41,088 nucleotides of DNA, taken from positions 1 to 41,088 of IMG/VR virus record IMGVR_UViG_2579778622_000013; one strand, given 5' to 3'. The position numbers and the translations under genes were made by a program. Below, piece after piece: positions 1 to 15,045 of this stretch. Source of the DNA: a virus. Taxonomy: Duplodnaviria; Heunggongvirae; Uroviricota; Caudoviricetes. A model generated the notes under the pieces. The model was not told the DNA's origin. It was given only the letters and a program-made list of their open reading frames with translations, and did no database searches. Positions within the stretch are counted from its first letter, which is position 1; each line of letters opens with the position of its first letter.

Positions 1-1251
1 GTGCTTACCGATACAAAATTAAAAAACCTCAAGCCGCAGGACAAACTGTACAAGGTCTCCGATCGTGACGGGCTGTATGTAGCTGTGCTTACGTCAGGCA
101 CGGTCTCGTTTCGCTATGACTACCGTATCAACGGTCGCCGTGAAACACTGGTAATCGGGCAGTATGGGCGTGACGGTATCAGCCTGGCAGAAGCGCGAGA
201 AGAACTGATTGCTGCAAAGAAGCTGCTTAAAGCAGGCCAGTCTCCGGCTGCGGCTAAACGTGACGGTATCAAAAAGATTCGTGGTGCCGAGACGTTTGCG
301 GTACATACCGACAGTTATATGAAACACGTCATCCTGGCTGACAGTACCCGCGCAATGAAGCAGGCGGTGATCGACCGTGACATACTTCCGGTTCTTGGCA
401 ACAAAATGATGGCTGAAATTACCACATCGATGGTTCGTGATTTGTGTGACCGGATTGTCGAACGCGGTGGTCGGGCAACAGCAGTACAGGCCAGGGAGAT
501 CATCAGCAGCGTATACCGTCACGCCAATGACCGTGGTCATGGTTTGTTTAATCCTGCGGCTGACATTAAACCTTCGTCTATCGCCATATTTAAACCACGA
601 GAGCGAACACTGACACCAGAAGAAATTGGCCTGTTCTTCCGCACGTTGGATGCCATTGGTGCTATGGGCACTATGAAAATGGCTTTAAAACTGGTGCTTA
701 TCACTATGGTTCGTAAGGGCGAATTCACCAATGCAACGTGGGATGAAATAGATTTTAAAAAATGGACATGGACAATTCCTTCAGACCGCATGAAGGGAAG
801 CCGGGCGCATGTTATTTACCTGCCTAAACAGGCTCAGGATATATTGGTCGGGTTGCAGATGTGCGCTGGTGGAAGTGAATATCTGGTTCCTGGTCGTTAC
901 AATTTCAGGAAGCCATTATCTAATGCCGCGCTGAACTCTCTGATCGACAGAACGGTGAAAATAATAAATGAAGATGGTGAGCATATTCAGGACTTCACCG
1001 TACACGATATGCGCCGTACAGCCAGTACGTTGTTGCATGAGGCTGGTTATCCTTCAGACTGGATTGAAAAGGCTCTGGCACATGAGCAGAAAGGTGTGCG
1101 CGCCGTATATAACAAAGCGGAATACGCCAGGCAGCGCGCCTACATGTTGCAGCAGTGGTCCGATATGATTGATTCCTGGATTAACGGGGAGCATACGGAT
1201 CTGATTCCGTTCTCCCCGTCGAAGTTTGAGAAGTGGATGGCGGGGGAATAA
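1..1251 (+). CDS. int: Tyrosine-recombinase phage integrase (P4/CP4-57-like, N-terminal arm-binding domain)
   Basis: 416 aa; N-terminus MLTDTKLKNLKP..DGLY..FRYDYR..SLAEAR matches P4-type integrase N-terminal pattern; C-terminal catalytic region ..VHDMRRTASTLL..VRAVY; GTG start at window position 1. Confidence 0.9.
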   Translation: MLTDTKLKNLKPQDKLYKVSDRDGLYVAVLTSGTVSFRYDYRINGRRETLVIGQYGRDGISLAEAREELIAAKKLLKAGQSPAAAKRDGIKKIRGAETFAVHTDSYMKHVILADSTRAMKQAVIDRDILPVLGNKMMAEITTSMVRDLCDRIVERGGRATAVQAREIISSVYRHANDRGHGLFNPAADIKPSSIAIFKPRERTLTPEEIGLFFRTLDAIGAMGTMKMALKLVLITMVRKGEFTNATWDEIDFKKWTWTIPSDRMKGSRAHVIYLPKQAQDILVGLQMCAGGSEYLVPGRYNFRKPLSNAALNSLIDRTVKIINEDGEHIQDFTVHDMRRTASTLLHEAGYPSDWIEKALAHEQKGVRAVYNKAEYARQRAYMLQQWSDMIDSWINGEHTDLIPFSPSKFEKWMAGE

Positions 1252-1254
1252 CGT

Positions 1255-1398
1255 TTAATAGTTCTGCTGATTTTCTTCCATCTCTGCTTCTGCTGCCAGT
1301 GATTCAATTTTGTTTTCGAATATTGCTGACAGTGTTGCAAATTCAGCATCAGTGACAGCGGGAATTGGAACAAACCTGATCCCGCTGTGTGCAAGCAT
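1255..1398 (-). CDS. Small acidic hypothetical protein (47 aa)
   Basis: ATG at 1398 downstream of methyltransferase stop; weak RBS; acidic C-terminus EAEMEENQQNY. Confidence 0.2.
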   Translation of the reverse strand: MLAHSGIRFVPIPAVTDAEFATLSAIFENKIESLAAEAEMEENQQNY

Positions 1399-1444
1399 GT
1401 TTGCAGTTTCAAGGCATTTCCTAAATCTGCTGGTGATGCCCTGT

Positions 1445-2095
1445 TCATGCTGCACGCTCCCGCCCCTGGTTGTCTGTTGGTGACAGCGGAGCATTGCTGA
1501 ATGCATTTGTTAATCTGGCAATATCCAACGCGTATCCAGGGTGTAGTTGCACTGCCGGGTCTTCGCACTGATTACCCCAAACATCGAAGCCATGAGACGA
1601 CTGGCGGGCGAACAGTTCAATGCGAGAAACATCGCCTAACAATTGCACAAGTTTTTCACGAACGACATCTGGTTTTCTTGAATGCTCAAGCCGCGGTGCG
1701 GTAAATGACTGAACGATCCCTGCATTAATGCGCGGAGGTAGTTTTCCCTTTACTGCAAACAGGCAATCTTCACTATTGGCGCGAGTCATGTGACCCATAC
1801 CCATAACCAGTTTATCTGGTTGTCGACTACCACATTTTATCCACGTGAATCCCTTCATGGTCATCAGACGGAATCCCCAGGCTTCAACAACTTTTAGTGC
1901 TTCGAGTGGTTGTGTTGGCACCCACCACATGGCCAACAGACAGTTTTCATCGGCCAAATCCCACACAGGAAGGCGGCAGATATCCAGCACACTCATAACC
2001 GGATATTTAAAACCGGCACCGCGATTACCATCTGCGGCTTTGTCCCGGTATACCCAGGGTGGATCTGCATAGATTAGTGTGTATTTCTTAGTCAT
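1445..2095 (-). CDS. DNA N6-adenine methyltransferase, MT-A70 family
   Basis: Catalytic motif LIYADPPW near N-terminus; ATG at 2095 overlaps stop of upstream ORF by 8 nt. Confidence 0.85.
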   Translation of the reverse strand: MTKKYTLIYADPPWVYRDKAADGNRGAGFKYPVMSVLDICRLPVWDLADENCLLAMWWVPTQPLEALKVVEAWGFRLMTMKGFTWIKCGSRQPDKLVMGMGHMTRANSEDCLFAVKGKLPPRINAGIVQSFTAPRLEHSRKPDVVREKLVQLLGDVSRIELFARQSSHGFDVWGNQCEDPAVQLHPGYALDIARLTNAFSNAPLSPTDNQGRERAA

Positions 2096-2387
2096 AAACC
2101 ACCCCACAACATCCTATGCCGCTATAGTCGCCACGGCGAAGGCCGTTACCTTTTGTGATACATTGGTCCCTGCGAACCGCGATCCTTGCACGTTCAACAT
2201 CACCAGAAGCAACATCCATACACTGAAGCCAAAGGTGAGCGGCAATGCGGAACTGCCCTTTTTTCTCTCTTTCAATCGCGCGTTTTTCGATCTCTATCGC
2301 CGCAGGAGTAACGGCGACAATCTTTGACTGACTGCGCATTGAAACCTTATTCATGTGATATTTTTCAAGTCGGCTTAACTTTCTCAC
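2088..2387 (-). CDS. Hypothetical early protein
   Basis: 99-aa ORF overlapping the methyltransferase start, same operon orientation; no recognisable motif. Confidence 0.45.
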   Translation of the reverse strand: MRKLSRLEKYHMNKVSMRSQSKIVAVTPAAIEIEKRAIEREKKGQFRIAAHLWLQCMDVASGDVERARIAVRRDQCITKGNGLRRGDYSGIGCCGVVYD

Positions 2388-8818: not shown

Positions 8819-9298
8819 ATGGAAAGTAATATCAAAGGGTTAGTTTCCGCCGGGCATGAGATGGCTTCGGAACTGAAAGCAGAATGTGGTGCCGTTGATA
8901 TGCGTAGTGTGGCAAAGCTGATCAGCGATTTGGCAATGCAACTGGAAGTGCAACTGGTGCGTGCTAATGCGCTGGCGGCGGAGAATGCGGCAATGCATGA
9001 AACTATTGAAGCCGTTCGGAGTGTTGCGGATAACTCCAGTGGAATTGCCGGATGGCATTTGAATGGCGATATCGCTACATGGGAAGAGATTCTTCATGAA
9101 ATTAACGATATCGAAACCACAGCCACCGACGCTTTCTTGGCTGAAGTACGGGCGCAGGCGTTTAATGACCTTTGCTCGGTGTTCGTTAAGGACGCGACGG
9201 TTGCCGGGCTGGACGATGGCGACATCGTTACGGTGAAAGAAGCGACGGACGCCCTGCTGCATTGTGCGGAGCAGCTTCGCAAAGGAGGCAACCAGTGA
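8819..9298 (+). CDS. Hypothetical protein
   Basis: 159-aa ORF with RBS; no recognisable motif. Confidence 0.5.
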   Translation: MESNIKGLVSAGHEMASELKAECGAVDMRSVAKLISDLAMQLEVQLVRANALAAENAAMHETIEAVRSVADNSSGIAGWHLNGDIATWEEILHEINDIETTATDAFLAEVRAQAFNDLCSVFVKDATVAGLDDGDIVTVKEATDALLHCAEQLRKGGNQ

Positions 9299-9981
9299 GC
9301 GAAATTAATTACCAGGCACTGCGTGAGGCGGCGGAACGTGCAATTCCAGCAATGGAACGCCTGTTAATGTTGCCAGCTGATGATGATTTGTTAAGTGAAC
9401 AGGAACTTAAAGATTACGGTGTGGATATTGATGCGCTCAACGCCTTCAAATTTCTGACCGGACCAGAAACCGTGCTGGCGCTGCTGGATGAACGGGAAAG
9501 AAACCAGCAATACATCAAACGCCGCGACCAGGAAAACGAGGATATTGCTCTTACTGTTGGGAAGCTGCGCGTTGAGCTGGAAGGCAAAGACAGCAAAATA
9601 GCCAATCTTACCGCCGAACGCGATGCTCTTCGTGAAGGTTGGATGGGCGACGCTAGGCATAGCAACACACGGGCCGCAGCTGATATCTACTTCCAACTGG
9701 TCGAGGAGTGCGAAATTCCTGCTGGCGGATCTCTGGTCGAGTACGTTGACGATATGCGCGAGAAGCTGGAAGCCGCAGAGAAGCGCATTGCAGAGTTAGA
9801 AAGTGGTTCTCAGGCACAAAAGTTAGTTGAAGCAATCATTGTTGCGATAGAAAACGAACAGGAAAGGCTTTTTGATGAAGATTACCTAATGGATTCGAAA
9901 GAATGCATTGACGTAATTCGTGAAGAAGTAAAGCGATGGAATGATTCCCGCGCTACTGGCATTCGCATCAAAGGAGAGTGA
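9295..9981 (+). CDS. Hypothetical coiled-coil protein
   Basis: GTG 9295 six nt after AAAGGAGG RBS, overlapping upstream stop; coiled-coil-like central region. Confidence 0.5.
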   Translation: MSEINYQALREAAERAIPAMERLLMLPADDDLLSEQELKDYGVDIDALNAFKFLTGPETVLALLDERERNQQYIKRRDQENEDIALTVGKLRVELEGKDSKIANLTAERDALREGWMGDARHSNTRAAADIYFQLVEECEIPAGGSLVEYVDDMREKLEAAEKRIAELESGSQAQKLVEAIIVAIENEQERLFDEDYLMDSKECIDVIREEVKRWNDSRATGIRIKGE

Positions 9982-9982
9982 G

Positions 9983-10738
9983 ATGATTCACTACCACGGT
10001 GGGCCTATTACTCCTGATACGTGCGCAATGAGAGCATGGAAAGGGCGACATGCGTTTATCAGTTTTGCGCATTCAGGCCAGATCAATCTCGCGGCTGAAT
10101 ACTGTCAGTCGTTCGCGCTGGACAACGGTGCATTCACCGCCTGGAAAGCAGCTGGCAAAAACAAAATCAACTGGAGCGATTACTACGATTTTGTTGCTCG
10201 CTGGAAGAATCACCCGGGATTCGATTTTGCCATTATCCCGGATGTTATTGATGGCGGAGAGGAGGAAAATGATGCGCTTCTGAATGAGTGGCCTCACGGA
10301 AAACTAGCTGGCGTTCCAGTGTGGCACATGAATGAAAGTGACGAGCGATTTATTCATTTGTGCAATGAGTTTCCGCGAGTGGCTATCGGTAGTTGTGGCG
10401 ACTATGACGTAAAGCGCCCAACTCTTGCGGTAGCCAGAATGAAAGACCTGATTCGTCACATTGTTGATGGGCATGGTCAGCCGGTTACGAAACTACATGG
10501 ATTGCGCATGTTAAATCCGCTGATATTCACAAAATTACCCTTAGCCAGCGCAGATAGTACGAACGTCGCTCGAAACATCGGTATTGATAAAGCCTGGTCT
10601 GGGGCTTATGCACCTGCAAGTAAAGAGACACGCGCAGCATTAATGGTAGAACGGATTGAGGCACACAATAGCCCTGGTTCTCTTGCGTATTGTGAACAAC
10701 GCGACCGCTTTGAAATGCAATTGCAACTAGCAGTTTAA
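9983..10738 (+). CDS. TGT-fold protein, DpdA-like 7-deazaguanine DNA transglycosylase candidate
   Basis: 251 aa; motifs LDNGAF, IIPDVID, KLHGLRML, ASADSTNVARN parallel Tgt motifs TDSGGF, MIFDEC, LMGVGKP, FDCVMPTRNARNG; no zinc subdomain; strong RBS AAGGAGA. Confidence 0.5.
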   Translation: MIHYHGGPITPDTCAMRAWKGRHAFISFAHSGQINLAAEYCQSFALDNGAFTAWKAAGKNKINWSDYYDFVARWKNHPGFDFAIIPDVIDGGEEENDALLNEWPHGKLAGVPVWHMNESDERFIHLCNEFPRVAIGSCGDYDVKRPTLAVARMKDLIRHIVDGHGQPVTKLHGLRMLNPLIFTKLPLASADSTNVARNIGIDKAWSGAYAPASKETRAALMVERIEAHNSPGSLAYCEQRDRFEMQLQLAV

Positions 10739-10748
10739 GGACTAACAA

Positions 10749-11291
10749 ATGACCACTATTACCAAAGAACGTATTGAATTGTTCATTAAAAATCCGCTTG
10801 AAAACGGGCTTACTCGTGGCGAACAAATGGAACTGGCACGAATTGCACTGGCATCACTGGGAGCAGAACCTGTAAGCCAAACTTACAACTTGCCAGAATT
10901 AATCGAAGGCATGGAGGTTTCCATTGATGTAAGCACTTGTGATGCGGATTTAGGTAATCGCTATTTCGGTACCGTCACCGAGGCGTTAGAACTTGATACT
11001 GCCAAGAATGGTTACATCCTCCTGGTTCAGGACGCAGAGCCAAACTTCGATGTAAATGGCAACTCTCCGGGAACTCCGGATGGTTGGATAAGCTGTAGTG
11101 ATCGAATGCCGGAAGACACCAAAATGTTACTGGCATTTAGTCAAGGTCAAATAGTGGCAGCATATTGGAACTGGGTTGTAAATCCAATTGATTACAAAAA
11201 ATATAGAGCTTTCACGTATTTATCAGGAAATATCTTGGATGACGTAACTCACTGGATGCCGCTACCAGAACCGCCGCAGGAGGTGAAGTGA
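10749..11291 (+). CDS. DUF551-like phage protein
   Basis: C-terminus ..HWMPLPEPPQE characteristic of DUF551-type phage proteins. Confidence 0.5.
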   Translation: MTTITKERIELFIKNPLENGLTRGEQMELARIALASLGAEPVSQTYNLPELIEGMEVSIDVSTCDADLGNRYFGTVTEALELDTAKNGYILLVQDAEPNFDVNGNSPGTPDGWISCSDRMPEDTKMLLAFSQGQIVAAYWNWVVNPIDYKKYRAFTYLSGNILDDVTHWMPLPEPPQEVK

Positions 11292-12459: not shown

Positions 12460-13931
12460 CAGATACAGCGTTATCTCCTGAAGAGCAGTTGATCGAGGAT
12501 ATTGCAGGGTTCACTCACGATCCGCTTGGCTATGCCCTCTATGCGTTCCCGTGGGGGGAAGAGGGGACTGAACTGGCACATGCTACCGGCCCACGTCAGT
12601 GGCAGGCTGATGCGTTCCGAGAGATACGTGATCACCTGCAGAATCCAGAGACGCGCTATCAGCCGCTTATGCTGGCACGCGCTTCTGGTCACGGTATTGG
12701 TAAATCCGCATTCATCTCAATGCTGATCAACTGGGGCATGTCCACTTGCGAGGATTGTAAGGTCGTGGTGACCGCCAACACCGACAACCAGCTACGAACG
12801 AAGACCTGGCCGGAAATTATCAAGTGGTCGAACCTTGCTATCACGAAAGACTGGTTTACCTGTACCGCTACTGCGATGTACAGCAATGATCCTGGGCACG
12901 ACAAGCGGTGGCGAGCTGACGCAATCCCCTGGTCTGAGCACAACACTGAGGCATTCGCCGGACTACACAACGAGCGCAAACGCATCATCGTGGTATTCGA
13001 TGAAGCGTCGAACATTGCGGATCTGGTGTGGGAAGTTGCTGAGGGTGCGCTTACGGACGAAGACACTGAGATTATCTGGGTGGCGTTCGGAAACCCTACA
13101 CGTAATACCGGGCGTTTTCGCGAATGTTTCCGCAAATACAAACACCGCTGGAAAACTGCGCAGATTGACAGCCGGACGGTGGAAGGTACTAACAAACAGC
13201 AGTTGCAGAAATGGGTTGATGACTACGGGGAAGACAGCGACTTCGTTAAAATCCGTGTGCGCGGCATATTCCCTGATGCATCTGAATTGCAGTTTATCCC
13301 TACCGGTCTTACTGATGAGGCAATGAAACGGGTGGTAACCGCTGCGCAGGTGGCACATGCTCCGGTGATAATCGGTGTTGACCCGGCATATTCAGGCGTT
13401 GATGACGCGGTGATATACCTGCGGCAGGGGTTGCATAGTAAGGTGCTATGGACTGGCAACAAGACCACTGACGATCTGATTATGGCGAAGCGTATCGCTG
13501 ACTTTGAAGACCAGTATCAGGCTGACGCGGTGTTCATCGACTTCGGTTACGGAACCGGTCTGAAGTCAATCGGTGACGGGTGGGGGCGCACATGGCAACT
13601 TGTTCCGTTCGGTGGTGCGTCAACTGACCCTCAGATGCTCAACAAGCGCGGGGAGATGTTCAACTCATGCAAGACATGGCTGAGGTTGGGCGGGATGCTG
13701 GATGACCAGGAAACAGCGGACGATCTGTCGGCGGCAGAGTACAAAGTTCGCGTGGACGGTAAAATCGTTATCGAACCGAAGGAAGATATCAAAGAACGAC
13801 TTGGGCGTTCGCCTGGTAAAGGCGATGCGCTACTGCTGACGTTTGCTTTCCCGGTGTCAAAGCGCCTGCGACTTCCCGGGCAGCAGAACCAGCAAGGCAA
13901 GGCGCTTACCGAGTACGATCCATATGCTTAG
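12456..13931 (+). CDS. Terminase large subunit
   Basis: 491 aa; Walker A-like GHGIGKS, Walker B-like VVFDEAS, C-terminal nuclease-like region; position between terS and portal. Confidence 0.9.
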   Translation: MTDTALSPEEQLIEDIAGFTHDPLGYALYAFPWGEEGTELAHATGPRQWQADAFREIRDHLQNPETRYQPLMLARASGHGIGKSAFISMLINWGMSTCEDCKVVVTANTDNQLRTKTWPEIIKWSNLAITKDWFTCTATAMYSNDPGHDKRWRADAIPWSEHNTEAFAGLHNERKRIIVVFDEASNIADLVWEVAEGALTDEDTEIIWVAFGNPTRNTGRFRECFRKYKHRWKTAQIDSRTVEGTNKQQLQKWVDDYGEDSDFVKIRVRGIFPDASELQFIPTGLTDEAMKRVVTAAQVAHAPVIIGVDPAYSGVDDAVIYLRQGLHSKVLWTGNKTTDDLIMAKRIADFEDQYQADAVFIDFGYGTGLKSIGDGWGRTWQLVPFGGASTDPQMLNKRGEMFNSCKTWLRLGGMLDDQETADDLSAAEYKVRVDGKIVIEPKEDIKERLGRSPGKGDALLLTFAFPVSKRLRLPGQQNQQGKALTEYDPYA

Positions 13932-14746
13932 TCTTTATTTTTATCCTCGAAACCTGATAATCCAGATAGAACACCAAAGTTATTAAAAACGTTTGGCTTA
14001 CCAGATTTTAATCCGGATAAGTTGTGTTGCTCCAAAAAGTTGCTAATTGTTTGGCCGTTGCCAAGTGCAAGGCTTTTTATTTGAGATTTTTCAGGGTATT
14101 TGAGTTTGTATTCGTCGAAATCATTTTGGAGAGTCTTATATGCCTCATTCATTCTTCCAAGAGTTTCCGATATCTCTTTTAATGAATGATTTAGAGTTGC
14201 TAACTGAGCACTGGCGGATCTCAATTCGTCATCTTTAGCTTTCAACTCGGCAGTCAATTCCCCCATACTATTCTTTGATCGAATAATCTCTTCTTTCATC
14301 TCTTGGATGTCTTTTTCCGCGCCAGTCTTAACTTTGTCGTATGTAACATCTTTTTTAGCCAATAACCTCTGCAGTCTTGTTTCACGCTGGATTTTTCTTG
14401 CCTTCAGGTGATTTTCGATTGAGTCATTATTATCAAGAGGCTTTGCTTGCCATACGTTAATGATATTGTTTACCCATGGTAATAGGCAGCAGATAGCAAT
14501 TACAGATAAGCATGGATAAAACATAACAGTTTTCCATGTGCTGTTATCTGAGATATATGAAATTTTATCTATTATGTTTGATTTGCTAAAAAATAGATAA
14601 AGAATTGATTTCCAGTTGAAGGCGCACCAGGACATAACAAAAGCACCAAGCACAGGGTTTTTGGCTCGATTCACGGCAGTATTGGCAGTAGATAAAAACA
14701 GCTCTTTGAACGATTCAAACATGCTAATTACCTTGAAGTTTTTCAT
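13928..14746 (-). CDS. Membrane-anchored coiled-coil moron protein, function unknown
   Basis: 272 aa from ATG 14746; two hydrophobic helices then long coiled coil; AT-rich; stop overlaps terL stop (convergent). Confidence 0.55.
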   Translation of the reverse strand: MKNFKVISMFESFKELFLSTANTAVNRAKNPVLGAFVMSWCAFNWKSILYLFFSKSNIIDKISYISDNSTWKTVMFYPCLSVIAICCLLPWVNNIINVWQAKPLDNNDSIENHLKARKIQRETRLQRLLAKKDVTYDKVKTGAEKDIQEMKEEIIRSKNSMGELTAELKAKDDELRSASAQLATLNHSLKEISETLGRMNEAYKTLQNDFDEYKLKYPEKSQIKSLALGNGQTISNFLEQHNLSGLKSGKPNVFNNFGVLSGLSGFEDKNKD

Positions 14747-14750
14747 GATT

Positions 14751-14765
14751 ATACCTTTAAGGTAA
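14751..14765. promoter_or_regulatory. Operator-like palindrome ATACCTTTAAGGTAA at moron gene start
   Basis: Dyad immediately 5' of ATG 14746 on the minus strand, overlapping the RBS and a TATAAT-like hexamer. Confidence 0.4.
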
Positions 14766-14781
14766 TTTGCGGTCATCAAGC

Positions 14782-14805
14782 AAAAAAATGCCCGGCGAAC
14801 CGGGC
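14782..14805 (-). terminator. Rho-independent terminator (minus strand)
   Basis: Stem GCCCGG/CCGGGC, loop CGAA, followed by a T-run on the minus strand. Confidence 0.5.
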
Positions 14806-14876
14806 GAACTGGAAGCAATGAGTTATGCCTTCCGTGGCTGTACTGGTTTACAGCATGAAGTCATCGCAATGGCGTC

Positions 14877-14968: not shown

Positions 14969-15045
14969 TGGCGTGGCATGCAGGATTCGAACCTGCGACC
15001 AACCGCTTAGAAGTCGGTTGCTCTGTCCAACTGAGCTAATGCCAC
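14969..15045 (-). tRNA. tRNA-Arg (anticodon UCU), phage-encoded argU-like
   Basis: 77 nt with CCA; cloverleaf GTGGCAT/ATGCCAC acceptor stem, D-arm GCTC..GAGC, anticodon loop CTTCTAA, T-arm GCAGG TTCGAAT CCTGC; similar but not identical to E. coli argU as recalled. Confidence 0.85.

Follow-up and report, generated by a model that had tools for sequence, protein, structure and literature searches.

The 41,088-nucleotide stretch of viral DNA analysed here (IMG/VR record IMGVR_UViG_2579778622_000013, positions 1 to 41,088; the window below) is a complete epsilon15/phiV10-like prophage, and the subject of this analysis is a plus-strand gene within it that encodes a DpdA-type transglycosylase of the tRNA-guanine transglycosylase (TGT) superfamily. 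Translation confirmed the 251-residue product of the original prediction (251 codons and a stop), with the reading frame intact (Table 1). The TGA of the upstream Ead/Ea22-like open reading frame (ORF) occupies 9979-9981 and, as read directly from the sequence, the ATG of the DpdA-like gene starts two bases away across the gap, and because the two lie so near one another they are probably translationally coupled. A longer DpdA-like ORF from an ATG at 9941 was considered and is unsupported; the homologues begin with MIHYHGGP. Neither promoter-like sites nor plus-strand terminator-like sites occur between 8200 and ~11740, and the gene therefore falls within the early-right transcription unit. 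Its earlier description as part of a 'nin-like region' holds by position only, i.e. with replication protein P on one side and the small terminase on the other.

Table 1. The DpdA-like gene, its conserved active-site codons and context features, in window coordinates
Feature	Position	Strand	Remarks
DpdA-type (TGT-superfamily) transglycosylase gene, DpdA-only subgroup	9983..10738	+	251 aa and stop, intact ORF
Ribosome-binding site GGAGAG	9973..9978	+	4 nt 5' of the ATG; sequence read directly
Asp47 codon (LDNGAF)	10121..10123	+	71/71 family members; aligned to invariant DpdA1 Asp
Asp87 codon (IIPDVID)	10241..10243	+	70/71; paired with Iggy D111 (profile-profile alignment)
His115 codon (VWHMNE)	10325..10327	+	70/71; aligned to invariant DpdA1 His; end of model strand 5
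His172-Gly173 codons (KLHGLR)	10496..10501	+	H172 71/71, G173 64/71; aligned to DpdA1 invariant H193-G194
Asp191 codon (SADSTN)	10553..10555	+	70/71 family members
Ead/Ea22-like coiled-coil gene (upstream, context)	9262..9981	+	Pfam PF13935, E=5.8e-29
MT-A70 family DNA adenine methyltransferase	1445..2107	-	Pfam PF05063, E=7.6e-22; 7.9 kb from the DpdA-like gene, opposite strand

Kinship with the phage DpdA family

The assignment of the protein is carried by its profile link to DpdA1, whose members in phages 9g, CAjan and Iggy are experimentally validated as dPreQ0 insertases. A family alignment of 71 sequences was compared by hhalign with a reference alignment of seven DpdA1 genes, each of which lies beside folE, queD, queC or queE, and the two aligned with 99.6% probability (E=2.2e-24) over 166 columns that pair residues 22-196 with residues 41-217 of Iggy DpdA. 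PHROGs places the DpdA-like protein in phrog_887, 'queuine tRNA-ribosyltransferase' (E=7e-103), which also takes Iggy DpdA (5e-86) and the 9g-like JenP1 DpdA (8e-99), and tblastn against the phage collection recovered Iggy DpdA (E=3e-5, residues 46-211), Vid5 DpdA (4e-4) and many Queuovirinae DpdA genes. The protein almost certainly belongs to the phage DpdA family and, as judged from the sequence comparisons, neither the gene nor its relationship to phage DpdA could plausibly be due to chance. The DpdA-like (TGT-fold) identity given in the original prediction is upheld by the hhalign result and by a PHROG held in common with validated DpdA1, and its own counter-case, that profile or structure searches would find no TGT fold, is not borne out, given the DpdA1 profile alignment.

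Searches against Pfam (no match at E<=10), NCBIfam and PADLOC returned nothing for the DpdA-like protein. Validated DpdA1 (Iggy and 9g-like JenP1) gives no match to Pfam PF01702 and none in PADLOC either, so that the Pfam and PADLOC blanks, including the PF01702 check proposed at the outset, are uninformative on DpdA membership. Neither phmmer nor any of three profiles (family, DpdA1 and merged) retrieved a TGT-type chain from the PDB sequences with an E-value of any weight; 7ui4, reached by the DpdA1 profile at E=1.6, came closest. Between the family profile and E. coli Tgt, taken as one sequence, hhalign gave nothing (0.6% probability), and tblastn with E. coli Tgt found no match in the window. 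The four motifs on which the proposed resemblance to the Tgt core was based are present and in the right order (LDNGAF at residue 46, IIPDVID at 84, KLHGLRML at 170 and ASADSTNVARN at 188), and their counterparts exist in E. coli Tgt (TDSGGF at 88, FDEC at 142, MGVG at 244 and DCV...RNARNG at 264-275). The resemblance stands for the motif strings, whereas a match to Tgt is statistically undetectable by phmmer, hmmsearch of PDB, Pfam, hhalign or tblastn.

Identification of such proteins has been published for the BTP1 type, and the window holds a further copy of a catalogued gene. Hutinet 2019 (Nat Commun 10:5442, PMC6884629) listed the Salmonella phages BTP1 SIU02687 and SPN3UB YP_007011024 and the Shigella phage SfI YP_009147480, together with HK106, SEN1, SE131 and 7-11 (Supplementary Data 1), as DpdA without G+ or preQ0 biosynthesis. 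The DpdA-like protein is 92% identical to those of BTP1 and SPN3UB, 68% to that of SfI and 36-38% to those of HK106, SEN1, SE131 and 7-11, with 7-11 itself at 36%. It shares with this DpdA-only gamma-proteobacterial cluster the same protein in a length class of ~234-276 residues, the lack of que genes and placement in the early region of temperate phages, and differs from it in nothing substantive, the window copy being in an epsilon15/phiV10-like E. coli prophage rather than in a P22-like or lambdoid one.

The family is large, with >7,800 homologues at 90% clustering and 795 clusters at 50% identity (E<=1e-3), and its genes sit in the early operons of the P22-like BTP1, the lambdoid SfI, the HK97-like HK106 and the P2-like SEN1, in the last directly upstream of a replication gene. 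Of 5426 complete E. coli genomes, 204 carry the allele described here (at least 95% nucleotide identity), in every case annotated as 'hypothetical protein', the name given to it in RefSeq bacterial annotation; the copy in E. coli IAI1 is 99.7% identical. Most of the left 25 kb of this prophage is carried by 341 E. coli genomes, and comparison of the two counts marks the DpdA-like gene as an exchangeable accessory gene. A 92%-identical copy is also found in GenBank OR850331.1 (1,719 bp), deposited as 'Staphylococcus phage SA 1298 Kay' and probably mislabelled or a contaminant.

Two longer homologues, P0226 and P0258, are chimeric: in one a DpdA-like part is fused to a truncated D12 methyltransferase, and in the other a tail baseplate GPD domain follows a DpdA-like N-terminus. 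The DpdA-like/GPD chimera, at least, is an assembly or gene-calling artefact, and fusion-based inference in that library needs care. A 'Rosetta stone' argument from these fusions, which are probably assembly or gene-calling artefacts, was dropped.

Active-site residues and predicted fold

The hhalign pairing of the DpdA-like family with Iggy DpdA1 sets D47 against D69, D87 against D111, H115 against H138, H172-G173 against H193-G194 and D191 against D212, and also pairs G136-S137 with Iggy G159-G160, G136 being present in 68/71 members. Each invariant position of DpdA1 has an aligned and conserved counterpart in the DpdA-like family, with D, D, H, GG/GS, HG and D following one another at the same intervals in both, and D191 is invariant across the combined set of the DpdA-like family and DpdA1. 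At the second Asp the BLASTP alignment differs, pairing the less conserved D90, not D87, with Iggy D111. The residues picked out in the original prediction (D47, D87, H172-G173 and D191), the position of the Asp nucleophile included, are conserved as it had proposed (Table 1).

Roles for these residues may be assigned from characterised relatives. In bacterial DpdA (PDB 7UI4), D95 is the general acid/base, D130 and H181 read the base and D256 is the nucleophile, and the D256A substitution abolishes guanine exchange (PMC10164549). Asp47 would accordingly serve as the general acid/base and Asp191 as the catalytic nucleophile, their counterparts being respectively D69 and D212 in Iggy DpdA, D95 and D256 in bacterial DpdA, and D89 and D264 in E. 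coli Tgt. For base recognition the candidates are Asp87, which would answer to D130 in bacterial DpdA, and His115, which takes the place of Iggy H138 and probably of H181 in bacterial DpdA and K154 in Cap10. His172 and Gly173 lie on strand 7, where Tgt carries YLMGVG, and by analogy with the H226-D248 pair of Cap10 (preprint 10.1101/2025.04.06.647259) His172 may be the hydrogen-bond partner of the nucleophile. The equivalences with bacterial DpdA and Cap10, including the set of three Asp and a His shared with bacterial DpdA, are drawn from the order and spacing of the residues.

AlphaFold2 (AF2) gave a weak model (pLDDT 68) when supplied with 28 close homologues, whereas the model from the 71-sequence alignment reached a pLDDT of 91.8 and a pTM of 0.89. 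It has eight strands alternating with helices, i.e. a TGT-like (beta/alpha)8 barrel, with the conserved residues at or just past the strand ends. Compared with known structures, the model scored 15.7 against Cap10 (9ntn_B) and 14.9 against bacterial DpdA (7ui4), followed by an unrelated aldolase (13.5), bacterial Tgt (3unt, 13.5), PdxJ (13.4) and archaeosine TGT (1iq8, 13.3), such that TGT-superfamily proteins come out on top, though not far ahead of unrelated barrels. A Foldseek search of PDB returned generic barrels only (TrpA among them; E>=1e-3, TM ~0.45), with TGT not standing out. The predicted structure is in agreement with the DpdA assignment, and does no more than agree with it.

The absence of a zinc subdomain, as in phage DpdA, had been predicted and is seen in the alignments, where neither the 71-member family nor DpdA1 contains a conserved Cys cluster and the five Cys of the DpdA-like protein are poorly conserved. 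In bacterial DpdA a CXCX2CX22H zinc site pins the 128-residue insertion Ins8 (PMC10164549), and E. coli Tgt carries its zinc-site stretch CDCYTC at 302-307 (C302, C304 and C307). The DpdA-like protein lacks Tgt's CxCxxC...H site, and unlike bacterial DpdA (413 residues) it has neither Ins8 nor the zinc site. DpdA1 likewise has no zinc motif; the DpdA-like protein is ~60 residues shorter than DpdA1, whose N-terminal ~40 and C-terminal ~95 residues are without an aligned counterpart.

Prophage setting, que genes and adenine methyltransferases

The first 25 kb of the window is 97.8% identical over 94% to the guaA-adjacent prophage of E. coli BE311. From the left end the window carries an integrase gene, the MT-A70 methyltransferase gene that the original prediction had also noted, recombination and repressor genes, and genes for a DnaT/helix-turn-helix replication protein and a lambda-P-like protein; these are followed by DUF1064, a hypothetical gene, Ead/Ea22, the DpdA-like gene, DUF551, a further hypothetical gene and the small and then the large terminase. 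Ead/Ea22 is the commonest upstream neighbour of the DpdA-like gene and is also found in BTP1 and in 23/80 related loci, but it is not constant, being absent from the SfI, HK106, SEN1 and Vibrio phage D105 loci; its candidacy as an obligate partner was dropped, since it is missing in most other contexts.

Genes for DpdA1 adjoin folE, queD, queC and queE, whereas those of the DpdA-like family never do. The window contains nothing that tblastn matches to phage QueC, QueD, QueE, FolE or QueF, or to QueA or Tgt of E. coli, the best E being 0.023 across 21 residues; the same queries drew a blank in 80 related IMG/VR loci, taken with flanks of up to 10 kb on either side and amounting to 1.09 Mb. The clade is consistently DpdA-only, and the sequence bears out the earlier statement that no que genes are encoded here, from which reliance on host preQ0 had been proposed. 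A ParB-like gene, the partner that would mark a dpd cluster, is also lacking: the neighbours are Ead/Ea22, DUF551, DUF1064, replication P and terminase. Guanine-exchange assays of bacterial DpdA used DpdB, a ParB-like ATPase, together with ATP (PMC10164549). In the actinophages Funsized (L008:1-1020) and Sonali (L009:812-1405) a ParB-like gene stands directly upstream of DpdA1, within the que cluster, a pair that recalls the bacterial DpdA-DpdB pair.

Adenine methyltransferase genes recur near the DpdA-like gene. The 80 related loci (L018-L097) hold 39 of them, from the unrelated families Dam (PF05869), MT-A70 (PF05063) and D12 (PF02086), with the number of independent events being smaller because many of the loci are close relatives. 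They adjoin the DpdA-like gene directly far more often than they occur at other places in the flanks: 21/39 are found on its own strand no more than 300 nt from it, on either side and in at least nine arrangements, and of the others 14 are on the opposite strand at a distance of 4.7-9.9 kb, the situation in the window. The pattern suggests recurrent two-gene cassettes of a DpdA-like gene with an adenine methyltransferase, and such guilt by association supports a putative role in DNA modification.

The slot between Ead/Ea22 and terminase (10749-11291, plus strand, in the window; also in other E. coli prophages) is a region of variable cargo that in relatives contains DUF551, DUF4752, ASCH-domain or dATP/dGTP pyrophosphohydrolase genes, replacing the DpdA-like gene or beside it. 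Between the large terminase and portal genes lies a tRNA-Arg gene (anticodon UCU; 14969-15045, minus strand), which is also annotated in the BE311 prophage, and adjoining it, likewise on the strand opposite to that of these two genes, is a 296-residue ORF (13928-14818, minus) between terminase and portal, with only sub-threshold, weak coiled-coil-type Pfam matches, that looks like an inserted accessory gene (moron). The BE311 prophage (L001:12001-14566) has a Ser/Thr protein phosphatase gene between its integrase and MT-A70 genes; this gene is missing from the window (1-2107), where MT-A70 comes ~190 nt past the integrase.

Proposed function and competing explanations

Taken by analogy with characterised DpdA enzymes, the DpdA-like enzyme would exchange deoxyguanosine (dG) in phage DNA for a host-derived 7-deazaguanine, a reading to which we assign a probability of about 0.6, with modification of phage DNA from host preQ0 as the best inference. 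A precedent for a stand-alone enzyme is 9g DpdA, which by itself in E. coli draws on the host pool to put dPreQ0 into plasmid DNA; it was also suggested that DpdA-only phages could use host preQ0 (PMC6884629). The protein would be a compact, zinc-free phage DpdA-family DNA guanine transglycosylase, expressed from the early-right operon in lytic growth. By analogy with bacterial DpdA and Tgt, it would flip the target dG from double-stranded DNA into the barrel pocket, where Asp191, held by His172, would attack C1', release guanine and leave an intermediate in which enzyme and DNA are covalently joined, with Asp47 as the general acid/base. A free 7-deazaguanine from the host FolE-QueD-QueE-QueC pathway, most likely preQ0 and possibly preQ1 or ADG, would then bind against Asp87, His115 and the Gly136-Ser137 loop, and N9 of that base would resolve the intermediate, leaving the 7-deazaguanine in phage DNA. 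The expected outcome would be a low-level, probably sequence-specific modification that may blunt some restriction systems; a protection that adds to MT-A70 methylation, as put forward in the original prediction, would be a putative further consequence.

Several observations weigh against this reading, and most of them are what would be expected of a TGT-superfamily base-exchange enzyme that is still active and has drifted, either to another 7-deazaguanine (preQ1, ADG or CDG) or to an RNA or tRNA target, an explanation we hold to be possible though rather unlikely. At the first catalytic motif the DpdA-like family has DNG in place of DSG, with Asn48 (Asn in 65/71 members) at the position where DpdA1, Tgt and Cap10 have the base-reading Ser of the pocket, and the C-terminal third of the protein (residues 197-251) is unaligned with DpdA1 by hhalign and unrelated to the C-terminal region of the latter. 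In the published similarity network the DpdA-only proteins of gamma-proteobacterial phages form a cluster of their own, apart from pathway-linked DpdA, and have maybe diverged in function (PMC6884629). The nearest relative with measured DNA is Salmonella phage 7-11 (36% identity), which contained no more than a trace of dADG (50 per million nucleotides, or ~0.02% of G) and no dPreQ0, and the DpdA-only Mycobacterium phage Orion had none (PMC6884629). A shift of base would also have a parallel in the DpdA2 enzymes, which are promiscuous for preQ1, preQ0 and CDG (PMC10516641). Literature searches found no assay of BTP1, SfI or HK106 DpdA or of any prophage or lysogen DpdA, and no enzyme assay of any member of the gamma-proteobacterial DpdA-only clade, including in the papers on DpdA1-4 (PMC10516641), Iggy, GrwAB and Dag1. 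An RNA target is in turn disfavoured by the closest characterised homologues, which all act on DNA, by the missing zinc subdomain, which in Tgt-type enzymes helps to hold the nucleic-acid substrate, and by the repeated adjacency to DNA methyltransferases, which points to DNA.

The scant modification in 7-11, almost nil in the one related phage tested, would also be consistent with a protein that binds or removes bases and inserts no modified one, for example a DNA glycosylase specific for guanine or 7-deazaguanine, or a protein directed against rival modified phages or host defences instead of shielding the phage's own DNA. Such a role would suit a gene that has no partner or precursor genes alongside and that comes and goes between otherwise similar prophages, as the E. 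coli counts given above indicate; we nevertheless regard it as improbable, as the full set of transglycosylase residues is conserved as in the inserting enzymes, the gene, in contrast to the typical defence genes expressed in lysogens, is found in lytic early operons and lacks its own promoter, and PADLOC has no match to it. Least credible of all is a Cap10-like protein that handles protein-conjugated 7-deazaguanine. In type IV CBASS, Cap10 (PDB 9NTN chain B) has as its partners the QueC-like Cap9 and a CD-NTase, whose deazaguanylated N-terminus it binds (10.1101/2025.04.06.647259). No QueC homologue such as Cap9, and no CD-NTase or effector gene, accompanies the DpdA-like gene in the window or the 80 related loci, and neither a CD-NTase nor a QueC-like gene is annotated in the near-identical prophage; PADLOC is again blank, and the sequence homology of the protein is to DpdA1 and not demonstrably to Cap10.

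A further reading is that the DpdA-only clade of temperate phages represents a functionally distinct DpdA. Such an enzyme would draw on the queuosine-precursor pool of the host, use an altered pocket (Asn for Ser) and a different DNA-binding C-terminus, insert a base other than preQ0 or act at a new motif, and tend to be passed on in a two-gene cassette with an adenine methyltransferase. This is a speculative proposal that we rate as doubtful, and if it were true the protection of phage DNA would depend on the queuosine (Q) metabolism of the host. More broadly, should stand-alone enzymes of this kind place 7-deazaguanines made by the host into DNA, the DNA packaged by a sizeable share of the prophages in enterobacteria would be partly modified. 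That would affect the restriction barriers to lysogenic conversion, Stx phages included, the sensitivity of these phages to defences that target 7-deazaguanine DNA (GrwAB and Dag1), and the long-read base-calling of prophage DNA.
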